From the IMG/VR virus record IMGVR_UViG_3300017700_000784, positions 1 to 64,000 of that record: 64,000 bases of DNA; one strand, 5' to 3'. The position numbers were made by a program, and so were the translations under genes. A model generated the notes under the pieces. That model was not told the DNA's origin, did no database searches, and was given only the letters and a program-made list of their open reading frames with translations. Positions 8,496 to 60,255 of this stretch are shown in pieces (the stretch's first letter is position 1; each line of letters begins with the position of its first letter). Origin of the DNA: a virus. Its lineage: Duplodnaviria > Heunggongvirae > Uroviricota > Caudoviricetes.

Positions 8496-9284
8496 CTATT
8501 TAGAAGAATGTATTAAATTTTCTAATATAGCAAGATTATTTTTATACTTATCACTCTTGTTGTAGCCATTTAAGGCTGCAGAAGAATAAAGAGTTTCTTG
8601 AAAAACTTCACTCTGATAAGAGATAAAGCTCACAAACTCCTCAATATCTGCCTTTAAGATATATTTAAGCACCCGGATGTTGAGTATAAACTCTTCATTA
8701 CGGATGATATGATTGATATCCTTGAGGTTTTTTATGGAGTTATAATTTAAATCATGCTCTATAGCAGGTTTATCACCTGTATATTCAGCGATGTAAAGAA
8801 ATATTACCGGATTAGAGATAGCTTCTCTTACAAGTATCTCTTTTATTCTTTCTTCATGTGCACCTGTAATTTTGATATCATCAACAAACACAAGTATCTC
8901 TCCATCTCTTATACAAGATTTGTCTAAATACATGGTATCAGATGATATAGCTGTTGCTCTTTCTTCTTTACTCATAAGCCCATAATCTTCATCATAGGAA
9001 TATTCTCTGAATATCTTGGATTGTTTAACAGTTATATTTTTTTGTATAAGCTGTCTGGCACATCCAGATAATACATAATCTTTTAAGGCATTACTTGCAG
9101 CAGGTACATTATTGTAAGGCGCTGCATAGAATACCAAAGTACTATTCTCTGGGAAATCACAGACTTTAGCTACTTCTTCACCAAAATGGCGAGCACAGTT
9201 TTTGGAACCATGTTTAAAAGAGCTATAATCTTTATAGAAATCCGGAGTGAACGTATCACTTTTAATTAAACTTATTGTCTTCAT
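8496..9284 (-). CDS. phosphoribosyltransferase-like protein (Ter-associated PRTase)
   Basis: PRTase motif 'EILVFVDDIKITGAHEE' (hydrophobic-DD-x-x-TG). The gene ends in TAG. Confidence 0.55.
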   Translation of the reverse strand: MKTISLIKSDTFTPDFYKDYSSFKHGSKNCARHFGEEVAKVCDFPENSTLVFYAAPYNNVPAASNALKDYVLSGCARQLIQKNITVKQSKIFREYSYDEDYGLMSKEERATAISSDTMYLDKSCIRDGEILVFVDDIKITGAHEERIKEILVREAISNPVIFLYIAEYTGDKPAIEHDLNYNSIKNLKDINHIIRNEEFILNIRVLKYILKADIEEFVSFISYQSEVFQETLYSSAALNGYNKSDKYKNNLAILENLIHSSK

Positions 9285-9304
9285 AAGATTTTAGTTTTAA
9301 TCAG

Positions 9305-9943
9305 CTACTGGAGTATGAACTCTACAGCATCACTGATAGTTTTGTCATTTGTGTTTATAAGAAAAGACTTGATACCAAGCTTTCTTGGGCCGTCAACATC
9401 TGTTAAGATATTATCTCCTACATGTACAGAAGAAGTAGAATACATTCTAACATCAGGTTTAGCATAACCTACTTGATCACTGAAACAGTGAAAAGAAGCA
9501 TACTTTATGTCTGCATTAAAAAGTATTTTTTTTAAAGTTTCTCCTGTAATAAACATAGTATTTGAAGAAATCTTTATAGTTCTTCCAGCTTGTACTAAAT
9601 CTCTTAGTGCAGGAAGGGTTTCTTCAGAATATACAAGAGGAGGAATTTGAATAGCTAACTCTTGATATTGTTTATGAAATAAAGCTGCATGTAGCTTATT
9701 AAAATTATCATAAGTAATACCAAAGTTACTGAATAACATTCTTAGTATTTGTTCAGTAGTAGGTTGCCATCCAGTTTGTTCTATAACAGAGTTTAATGTA
9801 TTTTTTACAGAGTCAAAAGCATGATCTATGTAGGAGTCCCCTAAGTCTTTCTTAAAGAACTCTCTAACATAGTCATGTCTCATTTCTCTGAAATCTGGAT
9901 TACTCTTAATAAGGGTATTCCATAAGTCAAAGCTTACTAGCAT
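9305..9943 (-). CDS. HAD-superfamily hydrolase/phosphatase
   Basis: Motif I 'SFDLWNTLI' (DxDxT-like) and motif IV 'HVGDNILTDVDG'. The gene ends in TAG. Confidence 0.6.
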   Translation of the reverse strand: MLVSFDLWNTLIKSNPDFREMRHDYVREFFKKDLGDSYIDHAFDSVKNTLNSVIEQTGWQPTTEQILRMLFSNFGITYDNFNKLHAALFHKQYQELAIQIPPLVYSEETLPALRDLVQAGRTIKISSNTMFITGETLKKILFNADIKYASFHCFSDQVGYAKPDVRMYSTSSVHVGDNILTDVDGPRKLGIKSFLINTNDKTISDAVEFILQ

Positions 9944-9944
9944 G

Positions 9945-10523
9945 TTATATAACAGCTACAGCTTCAGGCACAATAGATGCTACAGTTCTACCATTACAAG
10001 GAGTACCTAAAGCATTCATTTTCCATCCACCATTGTGTCTGTAAAGTTTAGCCATGATTAATCCTGTGTTAGTAGTTCCTCTCTCATTGAGTTTATAGAT
10101 ACAAATTTCTTTGTTTTCTACACTATCAACAAGTCTAGCAAAGCAGTTTTTAACCTTATTAAAAGTTTGACCTTGATAAGAATTAACAACAAACACTAAG
10201 CTATCTACATTTGTAGGCACTGTAGTAAGATTTACATGAATTACTTCATCATCTCCATCACCAGCACCTGTAAGGTTGTCACCACTATGTCTGATGCTTC
10301 CATCACTAGAATGTAATTTTGAAAAACTAACAGTATCCACTACAGTTTTATTTACATCAAACATGATAACAGAAGCATCTAAATCGATACTTCCACCACC
10401 CATACCAAGAAATCCTCCTGATGAAGCATCCCAACCTAAACCCATAAAAACAGCAGTTAAAGCTCCACCATCAGCTTTCTTTAACTCTATTTTTTGTCCT
10501 TTTGTTAAGTTAATACTACTCAT
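9945..10523 (-). CDS. TerD-family stress protein (TerD/TerE/TerZ-like paralogue)
   Basis: 'INLTKGQKIELKK', 'MGLGWDA', 'DLDASVIMFD', 'HSGDNLTGAGDGDDEVIHVNL', 'LVFVVNSY' and 'KLYRHNGGWK' match the TerD-domain consensus. Confidence 0.9.
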   Translation of the reverse strand: MSSINLTKGQKIELKKADGGALTAVFMGLGWDASSGGFLGMGGGSIDLDASVIMFDVNKTVVDTVSFSKLHSSDGSIRHSGDNLTGAGDGDDEVIHVNLTTVPTNVDSLVFVVNSYQGQTFNKVKNCFARLVDSVENKEICIYKLNERGTTNTGLIMAKLYRHNGGWKMNALGTPCNGRTVASIVPEAVAVI

Positions 10524-10664
10524 TATAACTTACTTTTTACATACGCTACAATCTTAGCGCCCCATCCAAGGGTTGTTTCGGCACACATGCCTCCTAAAAA
10601 TACTAATGCAAATCCTATCATCTTTTCTATTTTTGAAAGGGTTAATAATCATTTAAAAAAGTAA

Positions 10665-10706
10665 TCCAAAAGGGGTAGTTAACTTGACCATCAACTAGCC
10701 CCTTAA
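10665..10706 (-). terminator. putative terminator between the two terD genes
   Basis: Imperfect hairpin AAGGGGTAGTT...AACTAgCCCCTT, with a U-tract downstream on the minus strand. Confidence 0.4.
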
Positions 10707-10738
10707 GAATTACCAGGTAACACAAAGAAAAATGTTTT

Positions 10739-11320
10739 TTAGTACTCAGCTACAAATTCAGCTAAGCCACCAGCTTTACCAGTACCAACTGCTTCAAACT
10801 TCCATTCACCATCTTTTTTGTATAATTTTCCGAAAAGTAAAGCAGTTTCCACGCTATAATCTTCATTCAAATCATACTTCATAAGCTCAGTGTTGGTAGC
10901 AGGATCAAATACTCTGATGTAAGCACCGCTTACTTGGCCAAAGTTTTGATTTCTTGCTGCAGCTTCATCAATAGTAACTACAAAGACAATAGCTTCAGCT
11001 TCAGCTTCAATTTTAGAAAAATCTACAACTAAACTTTCATCATCTCCATCTCCTTCTCCAGTTCTGTTGTCTCCTGTGTGCACTACTGCATCATTAGGAG
11101 ATTTCAAATTGTTGTAAAAAACGAAGTGAGCATCTGATAATCTCTTGTTAGCAGCATTAAGAATAACTGCAGATACATCTACATCAAACTGTGGTCCTAC
11201 ATTTGCATTAGGATTCCATCCTAAGCCTACCTGGTATTTAGAAACTCCAGGATTTGTTTTTGTTAGGTCAACTTTTTGACCTTTTGACAAGTTAATTGTC
11301 ACTACGGGTGTTGTACTCAT
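10739..11320 (-). CDS. terD: tellurium-resistance protein TerD
   Basis: Near-collinear with enterobacterial TerD: 'FVFYNNLKSPNDAVVHTGDNRTGEGDGDDESLVVDF', 'IVFVVTIDEAAARNQNFGQVSGAYIRV' and 'LLFGKLYKKDGEWKFEAVGTGKAGGLAEF'. Confidence 0.95.
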   Translation of the reverse strand: MSTTPVVTINLSKGQKVDLTKTNPGVSKYQVGLGWNPNANVGPQFDVDVSAVILNAANKRLSDAHFVFYNNLKSPNDAVVHTGDNRTGEGDGDDESLVVDFSKIEAEAEAIVFVVTIDEAAARNQNFGQVSGAYIRVFDPATNTELMKYDLNEDYSVETALLFGKLYKKDGEWKFEAVGTGKAGGLAEFVAEY

Positions 11321-11349
11321 GGTTATATAAAAATTAAATTTGTTTTTGT

Positions 11350-11570
11350 TTAACTACCTCCACAGCTACTTCCACAAGAGCTACCACAGCTTGAACTACT
11401 ACTACAGCTACTTGAAGATGAACTACTACAAGAGCTATGTGAAGAACTACAACTACTATGGCTACTACATGAAGAACTATGATCATTACTAGAACTGTGA
11501 TGTGAATCACTGGCCGGAGTAGAACCACATGAACTTGCAGAAAAACAGGAAGAAGAACTTGAATTATCTT
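11350..11570 (-). repeat. low-complexity (AGC/TGC-type) repeat encoding the Ser/Cys tail
   Basis: Reiterated 'agctactac / agaactac' units, which produce a homopolymer-like shadow ORF on the other frame (11334..11600). Confidence 0.6.
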
Positions 11571-12054
11571 TTTGAGAGACAGGTTCACTTGCAGATACAC
11601 TATCCATCATAAGTATAGGTATCCAGAACATCCAGTCATCACCAGAATTACTTCTGGAACTTGTGTATCCTGAAGACTTTATACTATGATGATACTGACC
11701 ATACATTCTTTTAGTAGAATTCCATGAAGCTTCATGCTTTTTAGGATTCTCTGTAGTGTTCGGGTCATGATGTATCACTCTTCCAAAAATATCCATACAG
11801 TCATCATAATATTTCCTTGTATCAAGGATGTGCTGATGCCAATAGTCATCTAACTCTTGACTCCAAGGGACTACACAAGCATAAGGATTACTAAATATCA
11901 TAAATAAGAACTGTCTATACTCTTTACAGATTTTGTCAGCTTCTTCTTTAGTCCAACCTTTTTTTTCTATTAAATTTTTAGTAACAGAAGAAAGGTCTAA
12001 CATATCTATTTTTTTAAAAGCTTTTTCAGCTTTAGATGTAAGCCACTCCCACAT
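11350..12054 (-). CDS. hypothetical protein with His-rich N-domain and an extreme Ser/Cys-rich C-terminal tail
   Basis: N-terminal part contains 'WHQHILD' and 'GRVIHHDPN'. C-terminal about 80 aa reads 'SSSSSCFSASSCGSTPASDSHHSSS...SSCSSSHSSCSSSSSSSCSSSSSCGSSCGSSCGGS'. Confidence 0.6.
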   Translation of the reverse strand: MWEWLTSKAEKAFKKIDMLDLSSVTKNLIEKKGWTKEEADKICKEYRQFLFMIFSNPYACVVPWSQELDDYWHQHILDTRKYYDDCMDIFGRVIHHDPNTTENPKKHEASWNSTKRMYGQYHHSIKSSGYTSSRSNSGDDWMFWIPILMMDSVSASEPVSQKDNSSSSSCFSASSCGSTPASDSHHSSSNDHSSSCSSHSSCSSSHSSCSSSSSSSCSSSSSCGSSCGSSCGGS

Positions 12055-12055
12055 A

Positions 12056-12772
12056 TTATTTCTTTTTAAAGATTATTGGAAACAAAAATACAGACATGGT
12101 TACTACTGAGAATACTAAATCTGTGTAGTGATTATTAAGCCATCCGTGTAGTTTATACTGTGGAAAGAAATCCATAATACCAGCTAAAAGCATTTTTAGT
12201 CCTAATAGAAGTATTACTATAAAAGCAGAACCTTCAAGAGTTGGATATTTCTGTAGTATCTGTGAAAAATATTGAGCCACAAATCTCATACCTAATATAC
12301 CTAAAAATACAGCAGCTACAACTACCCATATATTACTGGATAATGATACTACAGCAACTAAGTTATCAAGACTAAAAACTATATCCAGAAATTCTACCAT
12401 TACTACAGTAGTCCAGAATTTATTAAGATGAAAAAATCTACATATCTTCTGTAAAAATCCAGGCTCTTGTCCCTCTTCTACAGAATCAACTTCAGCAGTA
12501 GAGTGAGTATACCATAAATAACATAGGTAAGCACCTCCTAATATCTTAAACACTCCTCCTATAGAAGGATTATATAAAATATAAGAAACCAGTAATAGAG
12601 ATAACCCTCTAAAGAGATAAGCACCAAGTATACCATACTTAAGAGCTTTTTCTCTTTCTTTTTTGTCAGATAAGTTTCTGTTTACTATGACAGCAAGTAC
12701 TGAAGCATTATCAATGCTTAACACTATTTCTATCATAAGTATATTCAGAAACACTAGTAAGAAAGCTATCAT
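12056..12772 (-). CDS. terC: TerC-family integral membrane protein
   Basis: Polytopic membrane protein with the two hallmark TerC motifs 'VLSIDNASVLAVIV' and 'VFSLDNLVAVVSL'. Confidence 0.85.
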   Translation of the reverse strand: MIAFLLVFLNILMIEIVLSIDNASVLAVIVNRNLSDKKEREKALKYGILGAYLFRGLSLLLVSYILYNPSIGGVFKILGGAYLCYLWYTHSTAEVDSVEEGQEPGFLQKICRFFHLNKFWTTVVMVEFLDIVFSLDNLVAVVSLSSNIWVVVAAVFLGILGMRFVAQYFSQILQKYPTLEGSAFIVILLLGLKMLLAGIMDFFPQYKLHGWLNNHYTDLVFSVVTMSVFLFPIIFKKK

Positions 12773-13386
12773 TATTTTTTCAAGTTGTATTTACAACCAT
12801 TCACAATGATATACTCAATGGTTCTTGGATCAACTTGTCTGGTTCTGTTATCATAACTAGCAGAATTATCCTTAGTTACCTCCATATCAATGAAAGACAT
12901 TCTTTTGTGTTCATTGTAAGAACCATAGTGTCTTCCTTTCATTTCTCTAAAAGCTCCCGGAGTAGTTCTAGTGATAGGATTTTCAATAAGATTCTGAACC
13001 ATGATAGGTAATTCTGACATCTTAGCATTTACAAATGCTTGTTTAGCAGCCTCAACTTCAGACTTGTAATCTCTTACAAGTTTTTCTTTGTCTTTTTCAT
13101 AAAAACCAACAGCCATAGCAATTCTTGGATTACTGTCAAAAATCTCAATAAGTTCTGTTCTTGTTTTCACTTCTTCTCTGTCATAGTAATCTGCACTACT
13201 AAGGATTTTTTCAACATACTTGTTGCCAAGAGTAATGTTATCATTACCATGTTCATCAGAAACAACAATACTACCTGGTAATATTTTCTTTACAATGAAG
13301 AAAGATGATTCAGATAATATTGATCCTGCTTTTAATCCAGCCAATTTACTTGTTGCTTGTTTAGCAACTGTTGCACTTTTTCCCAT
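12772..13386 (-). CDS. hypothetical protein (inside the Ter-like cluster)
   Basis: 204-aa ORF with a 1-nt overlap with terC. Confidence 0.5.
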   Translation of the reverse strand: MGKSATVAKQATSKLAGLKAGSILSESSFFIVKKILPGSIVVSDEHGNDNITLGNKYVEKILSSADYYDREEVKTRTELIEIFDSNPRIAMAVGFYEKDKEKLVRDYKSEVEAAKQAFVNAKMSELPIMVQNLIENPITRTTPGAFREMKGRHYGSYNEHKRMSFIDMEVTKDNSASYDNRTRQVDPRTIEYIIVNGCKYNLKK

Positions 13387-13450
13387 GCTTTTTAGTTTTT
13401 AAAGTTTATGAATTATTTTTTTCTTTTTTAGCAATTTTTCCCAAGTCTTA

Positions 13451-14278
13451 TTACTTGATGTCTTTATAGAAACCTTTACTTACATCTTCTCCTGCAACAG
13501 CGCTGGTAAAATAAGCAGTTCTACTTCTTAAAGTCTCTCCAAGAACTTTTTTAAGGCCTTCTCCAGTACCATCATAAGATGCAGTATTACTAGCATGCAC
13601 TTTTGTTTTTCTTATGATAGAAGCAACATCTTGTTTGGTTCCAATAAAAGTAATAGTGAAATTTTTACTATTATACTCTTCTATTAGTTTACCTACAGAC
13701 TCAGAATTATACTTACGGGAAGCATTTTCTTCTCCATCTGTATAGATGTTTACTAAAACTTTACATGAAGTATCTTTAAGATAAGATTTCATTGCTGTAA
13801 GAGTCTGTCCTATAGCATCATATAATGCTGTGGTACCTCCGGCATGGCAAGCAATTTTTGATACACCTTTAACAGGTTTAGACAAATACTGTAAATCTAC
13901 ATTATGGTCAAATTGACAATAAGTGTGTGTATATACTACTTTGTCTTTTGAGTTTTGAAGCTCTTCTACTCCTTTATTAAGGAATTCTTTGGCATTTTGA
14001 ATTTTAGGTCCTGACATAGAACCAGAGCGATCTAAAATGTCTACAACATGAATAGTTGTGATTTTGTTTTTACTAGAAGACTTATCAGTCTTAGTACTCT
14101 TAGGTGGGGTTGTAGTTGTAGTAGCAGTTGCTTTTTTACCAGTTTTTAAAAAACTAATGTACTCAGCAGCAGTACTAAAACCCTCTTTTTGTGCTTTTTT
14201 CTCTCTTGAAACTTTGTTTCTTTGGATAAAAGACTTTAACAGATCAGAATTCGATTTTTTTGTGGCAGTTGCACTCAT
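13451..14278 (-). CDS. vWA-domain protein (TerY-like)
   Basis: MIDAS motif 'VVDILDRSGSMSG' ... 'GGTTALYDAI' ... 'YTDGEEN'. The N-terminal about 70 aa is Lys/Thr-rich and looks disordered. Confidence 0.8.
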   Translation of the reverse strand: MSATATKKSNSDLLKSFIQRNKVSREKKAQKEGFSTAAEYISFLKTGKKATATTTTTPPKSTKTDKSSSKNKITTIHVVDILDRSGSMSGPKIQNAKEFLNKGVEELQNSKDKVVYTHTYCQFDHNVDLQYLSKPVKGVSKIACHAGGTTALYDAIGQTLTAMKSYLKDTSCKVLVNIYTDGEENASRKYNSESVGKLIEEYNSKNFTITFIGTKQDVASIIRKTKVHASNTASYDGTGEGLKKVLGETLRSRTAYFTSAVAGEDVSKGFYKDIK

Positions 14279-19281: not shown

Positions 19282-20487
19282 TTAGAAAGGATTATCATCA
19301 TCAGTAGTAGATACCTCACACTGACCAGTAGATTCTCTCTTAACCCACTGACCTTCAGCATCTTTAACATATCCAGCTTTCTTTTTACTCATGAATTTTC
19401 CATCAGGTCCTTTTATAATAGGATTAAGCTCGGCTTCATACTGAAGTTTTATAGCTTGATGATTACGGATTTCACCATCTATCTTACGCACCATATCAGT
19501 ATGTAAAGATATCAAGCTGTCATCAACACTCATCTTACTAAGAGTTTTAAACTTAGCATTAAGTTCACTGTATTTCTCAATGAAAAGCTCCTTTTCTTCT
19601 CTTGTAGAAGGATTAGCATTAGCAAGATATTCAAGATACTCTGCAAGTTCAGCACCACTTTGTTTAAACTTAATAGTTGCCTCAAACTTTTTAAGAGCTT
19701 CAGCTATAAGCTGTGGCTTTTTATTCAAGTCAGCTATAAGCTTAAGTGAGTCTGGTCCACAAGTTTCATACACAGCATAAGTATCAATAGCAATTCTAGG
19801 AGAAATGTTGATATTAGCTTTAGCATATTCTTGTAGCATGAAAGGAATAATTGGATCTACTTGGCCTACACCAAATCTTTGCTCCAAAAGTTTATTATAA
19901 CTCTCTTCTGTGTAATTATCCCAAATCACAAGAAGTTCAAGTGGAAATCTTTCCATAACTGCTTTAAGTGAGTCATTTTTAGCAAACTCTTCACGAGTTT
20001 TGTTTGTACATGCTATAATAAACTTGGTTTTGATTGGAAATACTTGTGAGCCATTTCTAAACATTCTTGAAGAAAGTACATCTTTAAGATTTTCAAGTAT
20101 GAAATCTGGTGAATCCATCATCTCTTCCAAGATAACATATTCATGGTTAAACATACTGTTTTCTATAAGATACTCTATTTTACCATCTCCTAATGATACA
20201 ATATCAATACCTCCAAACAGTCTATCTGTAGTCATACCTGAACCCATAGTAAGAACATATGGATTAATACCTTTTTCATACAAATACTCTAAGGCAAATT
20301 CTGATTTTCCATGACCACCTGGACCAAAGAGAACCACATTTCTGCCTGTTTTCATACCTGCATCAAGTGCTAACAGCACTTTATCCATAAAGACAAAATT
20401 ACTTAGGATACTCTGTTTAGGTATATTCTTTACTTTTCGAGAAGCTTTTGGTTTTTTAGCTTCTACTTCTTCTTTTATCGCTGTCAT
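19282..20487 (-). CDS. AAA+ ATPase, CobS/MoxR-like
   Basis: Walker A 'VVLFGPGGHGKSEFA' and Walker B-like 'EYVILEEMMD'. Adjacent to the vWA partner. Confidence 0.7.
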   Translation of the reverse strand: MTAIKEEVEAKKPKASRKVKNIPKQSILSNFVFMDKVLLALDAGMKTGRNVVLFGPGGHGKSEFALEYLYEKGINPYVLTMGSGMTTDRLFGGIDIVSLGDGKIEYLIENSMFNHEYVILEEMMDSPDFILENLKDVLSSRMFRNGSQVFPIKTKFIIACTNKTREEFAKNDSLKAVMERFPLELLVIWDNYTEESYNKLLEQRFGVGQVDPIIPFMLQEYAKANINISPRIAIDTYAVYETCGPDSLKLIADLNKKPQLIAEALKKFEATIKFKQSGAELAEYLEYLANANPSTREEKELFIEKYSELNAKFKTLSKMSVDDSLISLHTDMVRKIDGEIRNHQAIKLQYEAELNPIIKGPDGKFMSKKKAGYVKDAEGQWVKRESTGQCEVSTTDDDNPF

Positions 20488-24803: not shown

Positions 24804-25757
24804 TTATTTAGGATTAAGTATTACTGAAGTATCTCTTCCTAACTGAGTACTAGGTACTCTTGGTACATCAGGATTTACATCTACCCATTTAAGATACTCT
24901 ATGTATAAAGGAGTAAGCTCTTGTTTTCTAAGCTTCATAGCTTTAGCACTAGCACTTGCTGTAATAACTACTCTAGCAGAATCTCCTCTGGCAACAGCAA
25001 TCTTTTGCTCTTTTTCTGCATCAGCTGCTTTAGCTTTTGCCATCCATTTCTGTGCATCATATTCTGCAGCAGCTTTATCTGCTATAGATTTAGCAATAGA
25101 ACTTGGAGGTGGCATATTAGTTCTTAGTTGTGATACTTTAAACCATTTACCTACTCTTTTATTAGCTTCAAGCTGTATAGCTATTTCAAATTCAGTTTTT
25201 TTATTAAAAATGTCTTCTACCTTCCATGAATTAGTAACGTCATTTACAGCGCCTAATATAGCTATTTCAAGCCATCCTTGTTCTATGGTTTCAAGACCAT
25301 TACCTGATCTGAATGCAGTTCTTAGATTAGTAAACATTTCTGCTGTAGTACCTGTTTTTACAGAGTAGTTAAATGAAGGAAATATCTTTAAAGCAAATCC
25401 TCCTTTAGCAACACTAGGTTGTTCTCCATATCTAATACTTCTTTGATCAAGTGGTATCTGATGTATTTCCTCTGTCCAAGTGTTGTATACTTTCCAACCA
25501 GAAATTTCTTTTATAGAGCTTGCACCACGGCTATCACCTATAAGATTTACAAGTAATCCTTGATAACCAGCTTCAATTTTCTTTAAAGCATAAGGTTGTA
25601 TAAATATTACTACAAGACATACTATACCAATAGCTATAGCTTTATAGTTTAAAACAGTATCAGCTCCAGTTCTTCTTACAATAATGTGAAGCTTGTTTTG
25701 TAAAATCAGTCCTCCAAATATGAGGATAAAAATAACGAGTAAAATAGATGTTAACAT
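24804..25757 (-). CDS. SPFH/band-7 (stomatin/HflC-like) membrane protein
   Basis: N-terminal transmembrane helix, 'QGLLVNLIGDSRG' and a C-terminal Ala/Glu-rich coiled coil 'AAEYDAQKWMAKAKAADAEKEQKIAVARGDSARV'. Confidence 0.7.
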   Translation of the reverse strand: MLTSILLVIFILIFGGLILQNKLHIIVRRTGADTVLNYKAIAIGIVCLVVIFIQPYALKKIEAGYQGLLVNLIGDSRGASSIKEISGWKVYNTWTEEIHQIPLDQRSIRYGEQPSVAKGGFALKIFPSFNYSVKTGTTAEMFTNLRTAFRSGNGLETIEQGWLEIAILGAVNDVTNSWKVEDIFNKKTEFEIAIQLEANKRVGKWFKVSQLRTNMPPPSSIAKSIADKAAAEYDAQKWMAKAKAADAEKEQKIAVARGDSARVVITASASAKAMKLRKQELTPLYIEYLKWVDVNPDVPRVPSTQLGRDTSVILNPK

Positions 25758-38546: not shown

Positions 38547-38712
38547 ATTATATAACTGGTTATTTCACTATAACCATCACACAGGAAAGTGGACAGGATT
38601 CCACAGGGATGATACAACAAATTACTGGAATGGGGGAGCTACTAAGTTCCCTGTTTTTGTACATGAAGACTTTCATACTATAGTAGAGCTTATTAAAAAA
38701 ATTATCTCTTAA
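38527..38712 (+). CDS. hypothetical protein
   Basis: 61-aa ORF. Confidence 0.3.
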   Translation: MIKTMDKLYNWLFHYNHHTGKWTGFHRDDTTNYWNGGATKFPVFVHEDFHTIVELIKKIIS

Positions 38713-40919
38713 TGTTTATACATATCCCAACATATGATGATACCACAAAGGAGTGGTCTTACACTGATTTTGAAACAAGGGAAGATTTTCTAGCTTACCT
38801 TTGGTCTATATTTAAAGTACCTGGTGAATATAACTTTGATGAAACATCACTTAAGTTTAATGAACAGGCTTTAAATTTTGAAAAAAATGGTAAGATATAT
38901 TGCTTTGCTCCTATGAGGTCTAAGGATTATAAGACATATTGGGATACTGAAAAAGAGAAGTGCAGACAAGGAGTTATATTTAAGAATAAAAAAGCATCAT
39001 GGTATCTTACCAGAGATTATTACATGTGGCTTAATTTTCTTCCTATCTATAATAAAGAGATTTCAAGATTTGGTTTTGCTAAAATTAGAGATGCCCAGTA
39101 TCATATGGCTCTTTATGAGGATATAGCCAGATATAGTTACAAGCATGGAGTAATACTTAAGAAGCGTCAGATAGCTTCCAGTTACTATCATGGTGCCAAG
39201 ATGATTAATTACTTCTGGTTTGAGGAAGGTTCTATTAACAAGATAGCAGGTTCTCTTAAGGATTATATTGGTGAGAAAGGTACATGGCGTTTTCTTGAGG
39301 AGTATAGAAACTTCTTAAATAGTTATACAGCCTGGTACAGACCTTGTACTCCGGATAAGATATTTAACTGGGAGCAGAAGATTGAGATTAATGAATCAGG
39401 CAGAAAAAAAGATATAGGTTTAAAATCTGTTATTATGGGTCTTATCCTTGATAAGGATCCAACTAATGGTGTTGGGGGACCTTGTACCTTCTTCTTTCAT
39501 GAAGAGGCAGGGATTGCTCCTAAGATGAACCAGACTATAGAATACTTATTACCAGCTATGAAGTCTGGTATGATTTATACAGGCCAGTTTATTGCAGCAG
39601 GATCTGTTGGGGATTTGGATCAGTGTGAGCCTTTAAGAAAGATGATAGAGCGCCCTGAGAGTAAAGATGTACTAGGTATAGAAACTAATCTTATAAATGA
39701 TAAAGGGGAAGTAGGTATAAGAGCTTTATTTATACCTGAACAGTGGTCAATGATTCCATGTATAGATGAATATGGAAACTCTGAAGTTGAAAAAGCTTTA
39801 GAAATGATATATGCAGAAAGAATTATCTGGAAGAAATCACTTGACCCAGAAGATTATCAGTTACGTATCTCACAAAAGCCTACAAATATTGATGAAGCTT
39901 TTGCTAGTAGAAAACTTGCTAAGTTTAATCCTGGGCTAGTTACAGCACAGATAAGAAGAATAGAGGATGATACTTACCATAAAGATTATATAGAGCTTGA
40001 GAGAGATGATAAAGGAGAAGTTATAAGTAAGCTCTCTAAACATATTCCTATATCAGAATTTCCTATATCTCCAAAGACTGAACACAAAGAAGGAGTTATA
40101 GTTTGTTGGGAGAAACCTTTATCTAAGAATCCAGAGTTTGGAACTTATTATGCTTCTATTGACCCTGTATCAGAGGGTAAGACAACTACTTCTGAATCAC
40201 TCTGTTCTATTTACATTTATAAAACAGCGCAGGAAGTAATAAAACATAAGTCAGATGGTAGTATAGACTCAACTATAGAACCGGATAAAATAGTTGCTGC
40301 ATGGTGTGGTAGATTTGATGACTTAAATAAGACTCATGAGAGACTTGAATTAATGATAGAATGGTACAATGCCTGGACTATAGTAGAGAATAATATTAGT
40401 TTATTTATTCAATACATGATCTCTAAGAGAAAGCAGAAATATTTAGTTCCTAAAAGTCAGATATTATTCCTTAAAGAATTACAAGCTAATGCTAATGTAT
40501 TTCAAGAATATGGATGGAGAAATGTTGGGACACTCTTCAAGAGTAATCTTGTTTCTTATGCACAACAGTTCATAGAAGAACACTTAGATTATGAAACTAA
40601 GACTGATGGTACCATAGTAAAGACTACTTATGGTATAGAAAGAATTCCTGATATAATGCTTCTTAAAGAGATGCTTGCTTATAGAGATGGACTTAACGTG
40701 GATAGACTTGTAGCTTTTTGTGCTATGGTTGCTTTTGCCCAGGTACAAAGTTCTAATAGAGGATACAGTAGAAGAATAGAAAGAGAAGACAGTGATAATT
40801 TGCAAAATCAGAATAATTATGCTAAATTGAGAGTGAGTCCGTTTAGACATATAGGCTCAGGAAAAGGGCTATCTGATACCATGAAAAAGCCTCATAACCC
40901 ATTTAAAAACTTAAGATAA
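38712..40919 (+). CDS. candidate terminase large subunit
   Basis: 735 aa, immediately upstream of the portal, scaffold and capsid block. Has a degenerate Walker-A-like 'VILKKRQIASSYYHGAK' and a C-terminal 'YASIDPVSEGKTTTSESLCSIYIYK' resembling the terminase nuclease first-Asp strand. Confidence 0.45.
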   Translation: MFIHIPTYDDTTKEWSYTDFETREDFLAYLWSIFKVPGEYNFDETSLKFNEQALNFEKNGKIYCFAPMRSKDYKTYWDTEKEKCRQGVIFKNKKASWYLTRDYYMWLNFLPIYNKEISRFGFAKIRDAQYHMALYEDIARYSYKHGVILKKRQIASSYYHGAKMINYFWFEEGSINKIAGSLKDYIGEKGTWRFLEEYRNFLNSYTAWYRPCTPDKIFNWEQKIEINESGRKKDIGLKSVIMGLILDKDPTNGVGGPCTFFFHEEAGIAPKMNQTIEYLLPAMKSGMIYTGQFIAAGSVGDLDQCEPLRKMIERPESKDVLGIETNLINDKGEVGIRALFIPEQWSMIPCIDEYGNSEVEKALEMIYAERIIWKKSLDPEDYQLRISQKPTNIDEAFASRKLAKFNPGLVTAQIRRIEDDTYHKDYIELERDDKGEVISKLSKHIPISEFPISPKTEHKEGVIVCWEKPLSKNPEFGTYYASIDPVSEGKTTTSESLCSIYIYKTAQEVIKHKSDGSIDSTIEPDKIVAAWCGRFDDLNKTHERLELMIEWYNAWTIVENNISLFIQYMISKRKQKYLVPKSQILFLKELQANANVFQEYGWRNVGTLFKSNLVSYAQQFIEEHLDYETKTDGTIVKTTYGIERIPDIMLLKEMLAYRDGLNVDRLVAFCAMVAFAQVQSSNRGYSRRIEREDSDNLQNQNNYAKLRVSPFRHIGSGKGLSDTMKKPHNPFKNLR

Positions 40920-43642
40920 TGCCTAAAATTTTTAATGCATTACAGCTTAAAGCTGGAGCAACTTCAGAATATAACAGGATGGGTACCTTAACCCGTCCTA
41001 TACAATTTATACTTACCTCTCAAAAGACACAAGAATGGGGAGCCTGGAATATGGATTGGTTAGAGATGCAAGGGTTAAAACAACTAAGAAGAACTTCAAG
41101 AAGATTACTTAAGAATTATAAACTTGCTAATGGTATTATTGACAAGTCAGATTACATTGTCTGTGAAGATAATGAGAATGCTGAGATAGTTGATATCCTT
41201 ACAAAAGAGAATGATTCAGCTTTTGAGTTAAAGTTCTTTCCTATTATACCTAATGTTATCAATGTACTTGCAGGAGAGTTTGCAAAAAGAAATGATAAAA
41301 TTACTTATTTATCAGTAGATGACATCTCTTATAATGAGATGTTAGGAGCTAAGATGGAGATGGTTGAGGAAAATGTTGTTGCTTATGGTGAAAACATTAT
41401 GAGACAAACCATGAAAGAGATGGGTTTAACTGAAGAAGATGAAGAGGCACAACAAATGATGGCGCCTGAGAATATTAAATCTCTTCCTCAAATTGAACAA
41501 ACTTTCAAAAAAGATTACAAATCTCTTAGTGAACAATGGGCTACTCACCAACATAATGTAGATACAGAAAGATTTTACCTTAAAGAGCTTGAGAATATGG
41601 CCTTTAAGGATATGCTTATTACTGATAGAGAGTTCTGGCACTTTAAACTTAATGAGGATGACTATGATATTGAATTATGGAATCCTGTATTAACCTTTTA
41701 TCACAAGTCTCCTGAAGCAAGATATATTTCTCAGGGTAACTGGGTTGGTAAAATAGATTTAATAACTATTGCTGATGCTATAGATAAGTATGGTTATATG
41801 ATGACTAAGGATCAGCTGCAGTCATTAGAAGTTATTTATCCTGTACAAGGTGCCGGATATATGTTACCAGGAGTACAGAATGATGGTAGTTTCTATGATG
41901 CTACTAAATCTCATGATTGGAATGTTGAAGGACCTTCTTTAGGCATGCGTCAGTTTATGGCTTTCCATAGTGCTGATAGTATGATGGGAATGGGAGAAGA
42001 TATTATATATAAAATACTTAATCAGTCTGAAGATTTATCAGACCTTCAGAATTATAGCTTACTAAGAGTTACTACTGCATACTGGAAATCCCAAAGAATG
42101 TTGGGACATAGAACTACTATTGGACCAGATGGTGGAATGACTCAGTCTATAGTTGATGAAACATTTAGAGTTACAGATAAACCTGTTTATGATACAACTG
42201 TACTTAAAGGAAAGAGATTAGAGAATCTTATATTTGGTGACCATGTTGAATGGATATGGATAAACCATACGTATGGAGGAGTTAAGATAGGCCCTAACAG
42301 ACCTAGTTATTATGGTAATAATGATGCTAATGGTTTCCAGCCTATGTACTTAGGACTTGGACCAATTAAGTTTCAGTTTAAAGGTGATAGTAGTTTATAT
42401 GGTTGTAAGCTTCCTGTAGAAGGAGCTGTCTTCCATGATAGAAATACACACTCAAGAGCTTTGGTAAATAAGATGGAACCTTTCCAAATTGGATTTAATC
42501 TTACTAATAATCAGATAGCTGACATATTAGTAGATGAATTAGGTACAGTAATTCTTTTAGATCAAAATGCTTTACCTAAACATAGTATGGGAGAAGACTG
42601 GGGTAAACATAACTTTGCTAAAGCTTATGTTGCCATGAAAGACTTCCAAATGCTTCCTTTGGATACTTCTATTACCAATACAGAGAATGGTATGAATTTC
42701 CAACATTTTCAAGTACTAAACTTAGAACAGACACAAAGATTACTTTCAAGAGTACAGTTATCTAATTACTTTAAGCAACAAGCTTTTGAAGTAATAGGTA
42801 TTACTCCTGAGCGACTTGGCGCTGCTACAGGACAACAGACAGCAACCGGTGTGGAACAAAACCTGGCTGCAAGTTACTCTCAGACAGAGATGTACTTTGT
42901 GGATCACTCTGAGCACTTGATGCCAAGAGTACACCAAATGCGTACTGACTTAGCTCAATTCTATCAGTCTACTAATCCTAGTATTAGACTACAATATATG
43001 ACTTCTATAGATGAGAAGATTAATTTTGAAATGAATGGTAAAGATCTCTTGCTTAGAGACATCAATGTATTCTGCTCTTCTAAAGTTAATCAGAGACAAC
43101 TTATGGAACAAATAAGAAACTTGGCTTTATCTAATAATACAGCCGGTGCTTCTATATTTGATTTAGGTAATTTAGCTAAAGCTGACTCTCTTGCAGAGAT
43201 TACACATACTCTTAAAGCTATTGAAGAGAAAACGGAAGCTCAAGGTAAAGCAATGCAAGACCATGAACTTCAATCTCAAAATATGATTGAGCAAGCAGAG
43301 ACTCAAAGACTTGAGATGAAACAGAAATTTGATGCTGAGCAAAATGCTCTTGATAGAGCATCTGAGGAGTATATAGCTGAAATTAGAGCTGCTGTAAATA
43401 CAGGGGTTAAAGATTTCAATGGTAATCAACAAACTGACTATATAGATACTTTAGAATATCTTGATAGTAAGCATGCTAAAGAAGAAGACATAGCTCTTAA
43501 AAGAGAAGCTCTTTCACATAAGCAAATGAATGAACAACAGAAGAATTCTTTAAAGGATAAAGAGCTTCAGATACGTGAAAAAATTGCTAATAAACAGTTA
43601 CAAGTTGCTCAAACCAACAAAAACAAGTATGACAAGAAATAA
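40919..43642 (+). CDS. candidate portal protein (large, with C-terminal coiled coil)
   Basis: 907 aa. Assigned by position between the terminase candidate and the scaffold. The C-terminal 150 aa form a charged coiled coil. Confidence 0.4.
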   Translation: MPKIFNALQLKAGATSEYNRMGTLTRPIQFILTSQKTQEWGAWNMDWLEMQGLKQLRRTSRRLLKNYKLANGIIDKSDYIVCEDNENAEIVDILTKENDSAFELKFFPIIPNVINVLAGEFAKRNDKITYLSVDDISYNEMLGAKMEMVEENVVAYGENIMRQTMKEMGLTEEDEEAQQMMAPENIKSLPQIEQTFKKDYKSLSEQWATHQHNVDTERFYLKELENMAFKDMLITDREFWHFKLNEDDYDIELWNPVLTFYHKSPEARYISQGNWVGKIDLITIADAIDKYGYMMTKDQLQSLEVIYPVQGAGYMLPGVQNDGSFYDATKSHDWNVEGPSLGMRQFMAFHSADSMMGMGEDIIYKILNQSEDLSDLQNYSLLRVTTAYWKSQRMLGHRTTIGPDGGMTQSIVDETFRVTDKPVYDTTVLKGKRLENLIFGDHVEWIWINHTYGGVKIGPNRPSYYGNNDANGFQPMYLGLGPIKFQFKGDSSLYGCKLPVEGAVFHDRNTHSRALVNKMEPFQIGFNLTNNQIADILVDELGTVILLDQNALPKHSMGEDWGKHNFAKAYVAMKDFQMLPLDTSITNTENGMNFQHFQVLNLEQTQRLLSRVQLSNYFKQQAFEVIGITPERLGAATGQQTATGVEQNLAASYSQTEMYFVDHSEHLMPRVHQMRTDLAQFYQSTNPSIRLQYMTSIDEKINFEMNGKDLLLRDINVFCSSKVNQRQLMEQIRNLALSNNTAGASIFDLGNLAKADSLAEITHTLKAIEEKTEAQGKAMQDHELQSQNMIEQAETQRLEMKQKFDAEQNALDRASEEYIAEIRAAVNTGVKDFNGNQQTDYIDTLEYLDSKHAKEEDIALKREALSHKQMNEQQKNSLKDKELQIREKIANKQLQVAQTNKNKYDKK

Positions 43643-43757
43643 GTATAGCGTTATAGTACATATTTTGTAAAAGAAATATTATAGACTTTTAAATCTTTTA
43701 GATTTAATTATGTAGATTATATATGAAGAAGAAACAACCCCGTAAAGATAAAAAACA

Positions 43758-45023
43758 ATGAGTACTGAAAATACTAATGTAGAAGATACCAATATTAACA
43801 TTGATGATTTTCTACCTATGCCAGGTGCAGAAAGTGTGGTTACATCTGATGATAATAAATCTCACTTATTTACATCACCTAATAAAGCAGTAGATATGAC
43901 TTTCATAGATGCTGCAGAAGAAGAAGAAGATGATGATGCTACTGTTACAGTTACTGATGCAGATGCAAAATTAACTTTAGATGCTTTAGCAACTGATGAA
44001 GATGCTGATGAAGATTTAGAAGTTGATCCTGTTAAAAAGAAAACAGGAAGAGCTAAGACAGATAAAAATGGTCTTGTACAGTTCTTTAAAAAGAGAATAG
44101 AAGGTAATGAGATGTTTGCTTTTGATGACTTTGATGAAACAAAACAAACACTTGAAGATTATCTTACAAACTTAGGTGATAAAGACATAGAAGAATTATG
44201 GACAGCTAATATTGACAACATGCGTCAAGAAGTAGCAACTAACACTCCAAAAGAATTCTTTGAAAGCTTACCTGAAGAATTACAATATGCTGCAGAGTAT
44301 GTTGCTAAAGGTGGACAAGATTTAAAAGGTTTGTTTAAAGCACTTGCACAAGTTGAAGAAGTAAGAGAGTTAGATATTAAAGAACCTCAACACCAGGAAA
44401 TAATTGTAAGACAGTATTTACAAGCTACAAACTTTGGTAATGGTGACCAAGAGCTTATAGATGAACAGATTCAAGAATGGGTAGAAGGAGGAATTATAAA
44501 TAAAAAAGCTGGTCAATTCAAACCTAAGTTAGATGACTTACAGGAAGAAGTACTAAAAGCAAAGCTTGCACAACAAGATGCTGTTAAACAGCAACAACAA
44601 GCCAAGAAAGAAGCTTACATGAATAACATATATGAAACACTTAAACCAGGAGAACTGAATGGTGTTAAAATAGATGCTAAGAGACAAAAGTTTTTATGGA
44701 ATGAATTAACTACTGTTAAATATGAAAGTATTACCGGTAGACCAACAAATAAGCTGGGTAAACTATTAGAAGATTACCAATTTGGTAAAGAGCCAAGATA
44801 TGACTTGATAGCTGAAACCTTATGGTTACTATCAGATCCTGAGGATTATAAAGAACATATTAGAACTCAAGCCAAGAATGAAGTAATAGTTGACACAGTA
44901 AGAAAACTAAAAACAGAGGAAGCTCGTAAAATATCTTCACATGTTACAGAAGATGAGGATGACAAAGGAGGTTCACCTGTAAAGAAAAAAATAGCTAGAA
45001 ACACAAACATATTTAAAAGATAA
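43758..45023 (+). CDS. candidate scaffolding/prohead core protein
   Basis: Acidic 'AAEEEEDDDATVTVTDADAKLTLDALATDEDADEDLEVD', coiled-coil-rich, immediately upstream of the capsid candidate. Confidence 0.45.
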   Translation: MSTENTNVEDTNINIDDFLPMPGAESVVTSDDNKSHLFTSPNKAVDMTFIDAAEEEEDDDATVTVTDADAKLTLDALATDEDADEDLEVDPVKKKTGRAKTDKNGLVQFFKKRIEGNEMFAFDDFDETKQTLEDYLTNLGDKDIEELWTANIDNMRQEVATNTPKEFFESLPEELQYAAEYVAKGGQDLKGLFKALAQVEEVRELDIKEPQHQEIIVRQYLQATNFGNGDQELIDEQIQEWVEGGIINKKAGQFKPKLDDLQEEVLKAKLAQQDAVKQQQQAKKEAYMNNIYETLKPGELNGVKIDAKRQKFLWNELTTVKYESITGRPTNKLGKLLEDYQFGKEPRYDLIAETLWLLSDPEDYKEHIRTQAKNEVIVDTVRKLKTEEARKISSHVTEDEDDKGGSPVKKKIARNTNIFKR

Positions 45024-45042
45024 CCTTAATAATTTTTAACAA

Positions 45043-46689
45043 ATGAGTACACCTGTATTAAACAATGGTCTATTCTTGCGTGACACTACCTACAAGGCCA
45101 GTTCACACATAGACTCCTACCACTTGCTAAATATGCTTAGAAGCTCAGAGCCTATGGATTTAGGACCTGTTGACTTATGGGCAATGACGCAAAAGGTAGA
45201 AATGCCTCTTTATCAGATGGCATCCTTTGGTGGTAAGAACACCATCATGGTAGATAACGCCCGTGGGGAGTATAAATGGCAGACGCCAATTGTACAAGAT
45301 CTACCTTACATTGTAGAAGATGTTGAACCTACTATCACCTCTTTAGGTGCTGATGGAACATCATTCAAAATCAAGCTTAACAGACGTGTATTTGGACATG
45401 GTGATATCATCACTTATGACAAGTACAAAGGATTGGAGCTTTATATCCTTCCAGCAGAAGATGTTCTTCCAACAGGGGATGGTTTTGTATACACTGTTCA
45501 ATTAGTAAACAACAACAACACTGCAACCTTAGACAAGAAATACCTTAAACCAGGTACTAAGTTCTTCAGAAAAGGTTCTGCCCGTGGTGAATATGGAGAG
45601 AGATTCTCTGACATCGGGGAATTGACAAATGGTTTCCGTGAGTACTACAACTTTGTTGGTGGTGCTGAAGCTCACGTACACTACTCTATCTCTTCTCGTG
45701 CAGACATGATGATGAAAGGTGGTATTAAAGCAGATGGTACTGTGCCAGTTACAGAAATTTGGAGATCATTTGATAAAAACTTAGATCCTTCTATTACCCG
45801 TATTGATGATATGGTTAAGAAAATGGGTGCTGACTGGGTTAAAAAATCTTATGACAATGGAAGTCTTACAAGATCTTTTGTTACAAATTTAGAAGCTGCT
45901 CACTTATCTAAAGTAGCTAATGACATTGAGACTTACTTAATGTGGGGTCAAGGTGGTAGAATCAAGCAAGATGGTCCGGATGATATTAGATTATCAGTAG
46001 GTCTTTGGAATCAGCTTGATAATTCTTACAAAAGAATCTACAACAAAGGTAGCTTTAACCTTGAGTTATTCCGTTCTGAAATCTTCAACTTCTACAATGG
46101 TAAAGTTGAATTTAAAGGACCAGATCCTAATAGACAAATCATTGTTCAGACTGGTATGGCTGGTATGAGAATGGTTAATGAAGGAATCAAGAAAGAAGCT
46201 TTCAGTCCTGCAGGTACTGGTACAACCTTGTATGCTAACATGGACAAATCAGGTATTGGTGCTATTAGTGGTAACAGTGCTATGGATTTGAACTTTGGTT
46301 TTGCTTTTACAAGTTATACCATTCCTTTCTTAGCAAATGTTAAGTTTGTACTTAACCCTGCTTTTGATAATGTTCATACTAATGATATTGAAAACCCAAT
46401 CATTGATGGTTATCCTTTATCTTCTTATAACTTTATTGTATTTGATATTACTGATAATACAAATGATAACATCTTCTTATTGAAATTATCTTGGGATAAT
46501 CAATTGAAGTGGTTCTATCAAAATGGTACAATGGACTACATGGGTAAAACTCAAGGGTTTACTTCTAGTGGTAACTTTAATGGATATAGAGTCTTTATGA
46601 CTCAGACTATGCCTTCTATCTGGGTGAAAGACCCTACTAAGGTATTGAAAATTGTAATGAGAAATCCAGTTACTGGAGGATCATTCTAA
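45043..46689 (+). CDS. candidate major capsid protein
   Basis: 548 aa, after the scaffold and followed by strong tandem stem-loops. Strong RBS-less Bacteroidetes-style start. Confidence 0.5.
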   Translation: MSTPVLNNGLFLRDTTYKASSHIDSYHLLNMLRSSEPMDLGPVDLWAMTQKVEMPLYQMASFGGKNTIMVDNARGEYKWQTPIVQDLPYIVEDVEPTITSLGADGTSFKIKLNRRVFGHGDIITYDKYKGLELYILPAEDVLPTGDGFVYTVQLVNNNNTATLDKKYLKPGTKFFRKGSARGEYGERFSDIGELTNGFREYYNFVGGAEAHVHYSISSRADMMMKGGIKADGTVPVTEIWRSFDKNLDPSITRIDDMVKKMGADWVKKSYDNGSLTRSFVTNLEAAHLSKVANDIETYLMWGQGGRIKQDGPDDIRLSVGLWNQLDNSYKRIYNKGSFNLELFRSEIFNFYNGKVEFKGPDPNRQIIVQTGMAGMRMVNEGIKKEAFSPAGTGTTLYANMDKSGIGAISGNSAMDLNFGFAFTSYTIPFLANVKFVLNPAFDNVHTNDIENPIIDGYPLSSYNFIVFDITDNTNDNIFLLKLSWDNQLKWFYQNGTMDYMGKTQGFTSSGNFNGYRVFMTQTMPSIWVKDPTKVLKIVMRNPVTGGSF

Positions 46690-59583: not shown

Positions 59584-60255
59584 ATGATTCCAGTAGGAGA
59601 AGTTTTATCCAGATTGCGTAACCAGATTAAGGCAGTAAAAAGTGATGCTTTTATTACTGATAGATTCTTGTATTCTATGGTTATGAAACACGCTAAGATG
59701 TTGATCAGAAGACAGGACTTGCGTAATAAGATTATGAAGTTTAATAGTGTATTCCAGACTCTTAACTTTGTAGAGCTTATAGAAGTAGATGCAGCTGAAT
59801 CACAATGTCACTGCATAAAAAGTGGTTGTATATTTAAGCGTACAAAAGATAAAATTCCAAATACTTTTGAAGGGCAGTTTGGACCTTTATTTAGATCTAT
59901 AATGTCTATAGATATGTCACAGGAGATTTATCCTACCTATCCTACTTTATATGAAAAGATGCTTAATCAAAAAACATTCAAGTATAACAATAAGAAATAT
60001 TATTGGTATATGGATGGTCATTTGTATTTTCCTAATATAGAATGGGATGCTATAAGAATTGAAGGTGTTTTTGAAGGTGACATAAGTGGTTATAATTGTG
60101 ATACAACAGATGATTGTATTTATATACAGGATACTATGTTTACTATTCCAGAATATTTATATGCAGAAATAGAACAAAATGTTATAAGGGATTTAGGTAT
60201 CATGCTTAATATACCTTCTGATGATACTCATGATAATAAAAATATAGTAAGATAA
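59584..60255 (+). CDS. hypothetical (structural?) protein
   Basis: 223-aa ORF. Confidence 0.5.
   Translation: MIPVGEVLSRLRNQIKAVKSDAFITDRFLYSMVMKHAKMLIRRQDLRNKIMKFNSVFQTLNFVELIEVDAAESQCHCIKSGCIFKRTKDKIPNTFEGQFGPLFRSIMSIDMSQEIYPTYPTLYEKMLNQKTFKYNNKKYYWYMDGHLYFPNIEWDAIRIEGVFEGDISGYNCDTTDDCIYIQDTMFTIPEYLYAEIEQNVIRDLGIMLNIPSDDTHDNKNIVR

Follow-up and report, generated by a model that had tools for sequence, protein, structure and literature searches.

A predicted GRDP-like domain protein with a Ser/Cys/His-rich tail in the Ter-type gene run of a tailed phage

The literature that we found on the GRDP-like protein family deals with plants and fungi, and the characterised proteins give plant stress and growth phenotypes. 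Many members of the GRDP-like/UCP032817-like family end in a Gly/Ser/Cys-rich region. Disordered C-terminal extensions that are dense in Cys and His, with small spacer residues between them, are also familiar from metallothioneins and from SlyD, HypB and UreE, whose tails bind Ni/Zn. Ter (tellurite-resistance-type) gene clusters, with TerD, TerC, VWA, phosphoribosyltransferase (PRTase) and HAD phosphatase genes, were reportedly described by Anantharaman, Iyer and Aravind in 2012. Finally, Ser/Gly/Cys tails occur on TIGR04222 membrane proteins, which have been proposed as substrates of multinuclear non-haem iron oxidative enzymes (MNIO), a group that yields, among other characterised products, the copper-chelating bufferins (PMC12452194). 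Here we analyse a protein that touches on all of these systems. It is encoded in a 64,000-nucleotide stretch of phage DNA (positions 1 to 64,000 of IMG/VR virus record IMGVR_UViG_3300017700_000784; hereafter the window) by a complete open reading frame (ORF) on the minus strand at 11350-12054, which runs from ATG to TAA and, according to the ORF list, gives 234 residues plus stop. A folded all-alpha domain of six predicted helices (residues 1-127; 11674-12054, minus) is followed by a Ser/Cys/His-rich tail (residues 165-234; 11353-11562, minus). The analysis placed the protein, as a new member, in a known family that is uncharacterised; its Ter-embedded clade and the evidence for selection on its tail are useful leads, not a new kind of system.

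With the GRDP-like/UCP032817-like family the protein shares a homologous domain, the WHxHILDT...DC...H.P signature, the predicted fold of giant-virus GRDP-like proteins and the Gly/Ser/Cys-rich C-terminal region; it differs in using Ser, not Gly, as the spacer residue and in lying in a phage Ter operon. The gene run around it shares with the Ter clusters two TerD genes, TerC, VWA, PRTase and HAD phosphatase, and to our knowledge the protein itself is not among the described Ter components. Like the tails of SlyD, HypB and UreE and like metallothioneins, its C-terminus is a disordered Cys/His-dense extension with small spacers on a folded domain, and the His/Gly/Cys tails of its relatives are especially similar to those of SlyD, HypB and UreE. 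However, it has no metallothionein or metallochaperone family match in Pfam, contains far more Ser, and its binding of metals is putative. The tail is very similar to the tails of TIGR04222 proteins; unlike these, the protein has no TIGR04222 domain (NCBIfam, none at E<=10) and no membrane segments, its tail is predicted to be cytoplasmic and not periplasmic, and no MNIO gene was found nearby among the window ORFs scanned.

Family scans of the protein with Pfam, NCBIfam and PHROGs returned no usable match, only noise (EST1_DNA_bind, DUF438 and DUF7841, E=0.08-0.2). The PF07173 model of the Pfam copy scanned, which is a copy without PF27765, did not score the query, and no precomputed family match is on record for its own product. 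The family placement is therefore based on homologues and not on a direct model match. When residues 1-164 were compared with a large protein collection by phmmer, ten relatives were found (E=4e-28 to E=5e-8), all of which carry a precomputed PF27765 (UCP032817-like) match and one of which also carries PF07173 (GRDP-like, formerly DUF1399). The homologue P0030 scored E=1.7e-95, and members found by the query profile match the PF07173 model, for example P0023 at E=7e-12. In an alignment of 11 sequences (A1), the invariant columns were Y46, R47, L50, V62, P63, D69, W72, H73, H75, I76, L77, D78, T79, Y82, D85, C86, G91, H96, P98 and T114. The family signature Y-R-Q-F-L ... V-P ... D..W-H-x-H-I-L-D-T..Y..D-C....G....H.P is present in the query, and the WHxHILDT columns are invariant both in A1 and in a second alignment of eight sequences (A2). 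The signature motif W72-H73-Q-H75-I-L-D78-T79 is encoded at 11818-11841 (minus), and a second His motif, H95-H96-D-P98, at 11761-11772 (minus), with H96 and P98 invariant in both alignments. A preliminary description of this DNA, made from the letters alone, had pointed to the N-terminal His clusters WHQHILD and VIHHDPN. Both are present and fall on the invariant W72, H73, H75, I76, L77, D78, T79, H96 and P98, so the clusters noted then are the family signature.

Structure prediction agreed with this placement. AlphaFold2 folded residues 2-127 into a six-helix domain (predicted local distance difference test (pLDDT) 85.7, predicted template-modelling score 0.79), with the same helices in the full-length model, and a Foldseek search with the domain model found giant-virus "Glycine-rich domain-containing protein-like" models (template-modelling score 0.67-0.69, probability 1.0). 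Judged by sequence and predicted fold, the domain is a member of the GRDP-like (PF07173) / UCP032817-like (PF27765) family. The A1 profile retrieved 13,805 representatives at E<=1e-3 and 4,800 at E<=1e-10, each representative standing for a cluster at 50% identity. Its members in the genome collection come from Acidobacteriota, Gammaproteobacteria, Planctomycetota, candidate-phyla-radiation (CPR) bacteria, Neisseria, Moraxella, Streptomyces and cyanobacteria, and the family is also found on IMG/VR contigs of 95-533 kb. The sole match of the domain protein in the phage collection was LR756511, a 595-kb uncultured huge phage. The only domain fusions seen in long family members were with GRDP-like itself and with one ubiquitin-like domain.

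The ORF ends exactly in the C-terminus that had been quoted in the preliminary description. The Ser/Cys/His tail announced there is real, with a length of 70 residues and not about 80, and consists of 43 Ser, 9 Cys, 5 Gly, 5 His and 8 other residues. Ser, Cys, Gly and His make up 90% of a 60-residue stretch of this protein; in no other ORF of the window do they reach even 45% of such a stretch. The tail had also been attributed to a simple-sequence repeat of reiterated AGC/TGC-type units, and this did not hold. All nine tail Cys codons are TGT, and the Ser codons are of five kinds from both codon boxes (AGT 18, TCT 10, TCA 8, AGC 6, TCC 1). The longest perfect tandem repeat in the tail DNA is 12 bp (2 x 6), or AGT three times in a row, and Tandem Repeats Finder reported only a 27-bp period (72% match) and a 12-bp unit (1.9 copies). 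The mixed Ser codons and the lack of any tandem repeat above 12 bp indicate that the low complexity lies at the level of the protein and is not that of a DNA microsatellite.

These results bear on the proposal that the tail is a contingency locus, a hotspot of length variation in which slippage of the DNA would alter the length or frame of the tail and thereby switch the protein on or off. The low complexity of the tail DNA would fit such a mechanism, as would the variant P0159, which differs from the homologue P0008 by one extra terminal Gly. However, perfect tandem repeats do not exceed 12 bp, the Ser codons are mixed, the P0008 tail is identical on eight contigs from several samples, the window is 100% identical, tail included, to the sole other assembly of the same phage, and a tail block described below keeps its amino acids over 25 synonymous differences. 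Slippage-driven switching is thus extremely improbable, and we rejected the contingency-locus or microsatellite reading on the grounds of repeat length, codon mixture and protein-level conservation of the block. Searches for strain-level variants of the tail region in metagenome and viral contigs yielded none, nor were close relatives found in them, and the cultured phages contained no DNA nearly identical to the window.

We also considered whether the Ser/Cys frame might be the wrong one or the product of faulty assembly, the two circumstances that the preliminary description had named as fatal to its own view. A Val/His-rich ORF (11334-11600, minus) and a Tyr/Asn-rich ORF (11340-11492, plus) overlap the tail-coding region. 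The wrong-frame reading was ruled out by the fact that the Ser/Cys frame continues unbroken from the conserved domain and that the same type of tail ends homologues from unrelated assemblies; the two overlapping ORFs are by-products of low-complexity codon composition, not genes. An assembly artefact was likewise rejected. A Logan contig that matches the window at 100% identity along 20.7 kb encodes exactly this product, and the clustered protein collection did not contain the exact protein.

The tail turned out to be a trait of the family. In the full-length AlphaFold2 model, residues from about 127 to 234 are disordered, a region longer than the 70-residue tail itself. Taking at least two Cys and at least 70% C/G/S/H/D in the last 40 residues as the criterion, we found a comparable C/G/S/H tail in 50 of the 158 best family representatives, 28 of these 50 tails having at least three His; at least two Cys occur within the last 40 residues in 116 of the 158. 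Across representatives the Cys-to-Cys spacing peaks at 4-5 residues, and in the window's protein the successive spacings are 6, 20, 6, 7, 8, 6, 4 and 4. Relatives from unrelated assemblies have tails such as ...SCGSSCGSSCGGGGCGGGCGGGG, ...HGCGHGCGGHGCGGGGCGGGGCGGGCSS and ...SSCSSSSCSSGSSCGSSCGGGGD, and C-terminal ends of the form CGSSCGSSCGGGG(D) or similar. Their tails swap Ser for Gly, keep the Cys and often gain dense His runs (e.g. HGCGHGCGGHGCGGGGC), several consisting of His/Gly/Cys runs such as GHHDAGGHHSAGGHHGCAGHSGAGHGCGGHACGGHGCGGH. The C-terminal motif CGSSCGSSCGGS of our protein (residues 223-234; 11353-11388, minus) contains C227, G228 and C231, which are invariant in A2, and the terminal CGSSCGSSCGG motif reappears in proteins with only about 40% identity in the domain. 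A literature search with tail peptide strings returned no occurrence of the protein-specific strings, and a string of G and C only matched DNA primers.

The choice of spacer followed base composition. In the last 50 residues, Gly/(Gly+Ser) rose from 0.08-0.14 at loci of 30-36% guanine plus cytosine (GC) to 0.6-0.9 at 50-60% GC (Spearman 0.80, p=0.001, n=13, kinship ignored). The phage genome is AT-rich, which would account for its Ser spacers where GC-rich relatives use Gly, and the Ser richness of the tail can be taken as the AT-rich version of the "glycine-rich" region of the family.

The strongest indication of constraint came from P0030, the closest relative, which is 54% identical by BLAST and 59% identical over the first 120 residues. 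The block SSCSSHSSCSSSHSSCSSSSS (residues 194-214; 11413-11475, minus) is found at the same position in P0030, at residues 195-215, with all 21 residues identical. At the DNA level the two versions differ in 12 codons out of 21 and at 25 of the 63 nucleotides, with several switches between AGY and TCN Ser codons. Conservation of the block despite 25 synonymous differences points to purifying selection on the Cys/His pattern and argues against slippage-driven evolution. Together, these comparisons of sequences indicate that the Ser/Cys/His tail is a conserved family trait, selected at the protein level.

A tail of this kind could still be a passive spacer, a flexible hydrophilic "bristle" that serves solubility, tethering or condensate formation and in which the Cys are incidental. 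Its predicted disorder, the drift of its composition with genome GC and the wide variation of tail length and sequence in the family are what such a spacer would lead one to expect. We nevertheless consider it unlikely, since the Cys are kept at a regular spacing of 4-5 residues though the spacers differ, since the CGSSCGSSCGG terminus recurs at such low domain identity, and since the 21-residue Cys/His pattern survives synonymous divergence.

Between domain and tail lies the hydrophobic patch WMFWIPILMM (residues 141-150; 11605-11634, minus). Comparable patches are found in relatives (WVWLVPIMMM, FMPIVFC, AFPLVFC), and in close relatives the patch is often flanked by Cys, as in GCGGAFIPVFC. 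The patch is not long enough to form a membrane helix; over 19 residues, the highest Kyte-Doolittle mean in the protein is 0.9. AlphaFold2 gave the patch a pLDDT of 36-44 and hence no confident placement, and in the full-length model neither patch nor tail is docked onto the domain. No signal peptide or membrane helix was detected in the protein, so its thiols should be reduced.

The Ter-cluster placement made in the preliminary description was borne out by Pfam, as the gene lies between TerC and TerD in a Ter-type run whose genes are all on the minus strand, in the order VWA, 204-residue protein, TerC, target, TerD, TerD, HAD, PRTase. The TerC-family membrane protein (12056-12772; TerC E=9e-42) is encoded upstream, with 1 nt between its stop and the ATG of the target, and the first TerD (10739-11320; E=6e-75) follows 29 nt after the target stop. 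Further downstream are the second TerD (9945-10523; E=1e-51), a HAD-type hydrolase (9305-9943), whose Hydrolase_like and Hydrolase matches are weak and below the curated cut-offs, and, at the end of the run, a ComF-like phosphoribosyltransferase (8496-9284; PRTase_3 E=7e-50). On the other side of TerC are the 204-residue protein (12772-13386), with a weak ART-PolyVal match only (E=0.02), and a TerY/TerF-like VWA protein (13451-14278; VWA E=4e-8); a bpMoxR-type ATPase is encoded further upstream of the run. The large terminase, portal protein and major head protein identify the window as a tailed phage. The terminases closest to its own, at about 25% identity, come from crAss-like phages and one window ORF matches the crAss tail-ring model CrAss_Ring_1, for which reasons we assign it as a distant crAss-like phage.

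The position of the gene recurs in its closest relatives. The P0030 gene (L098) is followed directly by a TerD with 72% identity to the TerD of the window, and on an independent contig (L102) the gene for P0068, about 47% identical, stands in the order TerD, homologue, TerC, vWA-TerF-like, NAMPT. In a neighbour-joining tree of the domain, drawn without support values, the three proteins form one clade.

We tentatively favour the possibility that the protein is soluble and cytoplasmic and that its tail binds and buffers thiophilic metals for a putative His/Asp/Cys metallo-domain, in concert with the TerC/TerD module. Several findings point this way: Cys and His are kept while the spacers drift, invariant columns of the domain include His, Asp and Cys, coupling of the gene to TerC is tight (1 nt), the members of the three-protein clade all lie beside TerD or TerC, and relatives have His/Gly/Cys tails similar to those with which SlyD, HypB and UreE bind Ni/Zn. 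In addition, TerC-family proteins have been reported in Mn export and metalation (PMC10550928, PMC10197570). To judge from the alignments, H73, H75, D78, D85, C86 and H96 most likely form a metal site in the domain. We infer that the tail, in which thiolates and imidazoles recur every 4-8 residues and are parted by small residues, would capture and buffer thiophilic divalent or monovalent ions (Zn, Ni, Co, Cu(I), Cd class) and would either pass them on to the N-terminal domain and the adjacent membrane protein TerC or shield these two; a hand-off to TerD is conceivable as well. The phage lineage may thus have recruited the protein into a Ter-type operon that would handle cations during infection.

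A number of observations weigh against metal buffering. No metal-binding family model matches the protein in scans that included Pfam and NCBIfam, and CxxC, CxC and CC motifs are absent from it. Of 12 further contexts in phages or metagenomes and of 70 bacterial loci, none had Ter genes near the family gene. Two other phage Ter clusters that we inspected (Bacillus phage YungSlug, MT836648) have no homologue of the protein. Ter linkage is thus seen only in the protein's own small clade and is partly conserved. TerC and TerD are linked to Ca2+. They are also linked to another hard cation, Mn2+ (PMC10550928, PMC10197570), while a thiolate/imidazole tail prefers softer metals, so that the chemical fit is imperfect. 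Finally, some bacterial relatives stand beside peptide-modifying enzymes, which suggests a different use of the Cys. The proposal in the preliminary description of a metal- or metalloid-binding tail beside Ter genes holds in part. Metal or metalloid binding is still the most plausible chemistry of the tail, because homologues keep the Cys and often add His and because the TerD-TerC position recurs in the two closest relatives; the tail is not special to tellurite loci, since the family is mostly found elsewhere, and a tellurite-specific role of the protein is unsupported.

A related possibility, which corresponds to the metalloid side of the preliminary description, is that the tail is a sacrificial thiol sink, which would react directly with tellurite, selenite, oxidants or electrophiles and so shield the infected cell. 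Thiols react readily with tellurite and selenite, the flexible tail would offer nine reduced Cys, and the position inside a Ter-type operon is kept in three contigs. On the other hand, such tails are mostly found outside Ter clusters, the His enrichment is not needed for the reduction of oxyanions, and nine stoichiometric thiols per protein would provide a small capacity without recycling, no reductase being encoded nearby. Ter systems are also not known to have tellurite as their natural target. We regard this role as decidedly doubtful.

The bacterial relatives open a further possibility. Their C-terminal extensions are hypervariable and usually contain Cys, and include G/S/H/C, CPxCGRRC...RPxL and NPCSSTDCR types as well as AAWCSA or AAYCV repeats. 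A pentapeptide-repeat membrane protein is encoded in 13 loci (L020, L025, L031, L041, L046, L047, L049, L050, L058, L063, L065, L073 and L080), typically about 16 bp (median) downstream of members of the CPxCGRRC...RPxL subfamily; in four acidobacterial loci (L016, L018, L019 and L077) a TrkA-type K+ channel adjoins instead. In a few distant relatives modifying enzymes are neighbours: a TfuA-YcaO fusion lies directly downstream of the family gene in L069, L075 and L089, whose family members have tails with Cys and INPQ repeats, and L069, L070 and L075 have a radical-SAM enzyme close by. The combination of TfuA-YcaO and radical-SAM enzymes is a hallmark of peptide-modification gene clusters, and the layout of these loci resembles such a cluster. 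The family gene is located at about 4.2-6.6 kb in L069, L070, L075 and L089.

These loci raise the question of whether the tail is a modification substrate, as in a ribosomally synthesized, post-translationally modified peptide (RiPP). The domain would then be a large leader or recognition module, or a cis-acting enzyme, and host or phage enzymes would turn Cys/Ser into thioamides, azol(in)es or thiooxazoles; the outcome would be a chelator that is either released or still tethered to the protein. The combination of a conserved N-terminal domain with a hypervariable Cys-bearing C-terminus across the family agrees with such an arrangement, as do the TfuA-YcaO and radical-SAM neighbours, the ATP-binding cassette transporters that recur in five bacterial loci, and the very similar Ser/Gly/Cys tails of the TIGR04222 proteins proposed as MNIO substrates (PMC12452194). 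However, YcaO, TfuA, radical-SAM and MNIO (DUF692) domains were found in none of the 45 window ORFs scanned with Pfam, which take in every non-shadow ORF of at least 220 residues apart from four (terminase, portal, major head protein, exonuclease) that were scanned with PHROGs only. Nor were these modifying enzymes found near the phage homologues, and no MNIO cluster was seen among the recurrent neighbours of the 70 bacterial loci. Moreover, invariant His and Asp are more to be expected of a catalytic or metal site than of a passive leader. For the protein of the window we therefore consider a RiPP-like role doubtful. Still broader is the idea that the whole GRDP-like/UCP032817-like family is a widespread and hitherto unrecognised class of domain-led cysteine peptides, in which Cys/Ser of the tail are converted to heterocycles or thioamides to give a tethered metallophore and the His/Asp domain could recruit the modifying enzymes or catalyse in cis. 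This idea we hold to be improbable. If it were true, large phages would carry such proteins, here wired to TerC/TerD, and would reprogram host metal homeostasis during infection.

The 204-residue protein of the Ter-type run may be a second linked partner of the target. A weak homologue (25% identity, E ~4e-5 to 4e-6) is encoded in a 533-kb phage contig (L009, 3981-4412), 1.5 kb from the GRDP-tail gene of that phage. Other phage-like contigs carry Peptidase_C39-type cysteine protease genes (L002, 13418-14017; L003, 9445-10044; L104, 1558-2214), 4-5 kb from a GRDP-tail gene and not adjacent to it. With regard to the window as a whole, the Ter-type module of this distant crAss-like phage comprises PRTase_3, HAD, two TerD, TerC, VWA and the bpMoxR ATPase; the module and the crAss-like evidence together cover 8496-14278 and 19282-20487, and also 38712-46689 and 60255-61358. 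TerD homologues were present in 241 phage records, mostly of large phages. An SPFH/Band 7 protein (24804-25757, minus) and a second MoxR/CbbQ-type AAA ATPase (671-2038, minus) are encoded in the same block as the module. The structural module includes an 883-residue protein (54903-57554, plus) with spondin-like TSP1 domains and DUF5122 beta-propeller repeats, which is unusual in a phage.

The GRDP-like/UCP032817-like family is among the larger families without known biochemistry, with about 14,000 clusters at 50% identity, and its members are found in bacteria, huge phages, giant viruses and plants (GRDP1/2). The Ter operon provides a concrete genetic setting in which the role of the family can be approached. 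Should the tail be no more than a spacer, it would be an ordinary low-complexity extension. If it binds metals, a soluble partner would be added to the poorly understood TerC/TerD cation-handling module, and manipulation of host metal pools by crAss-like phages would be suggested.

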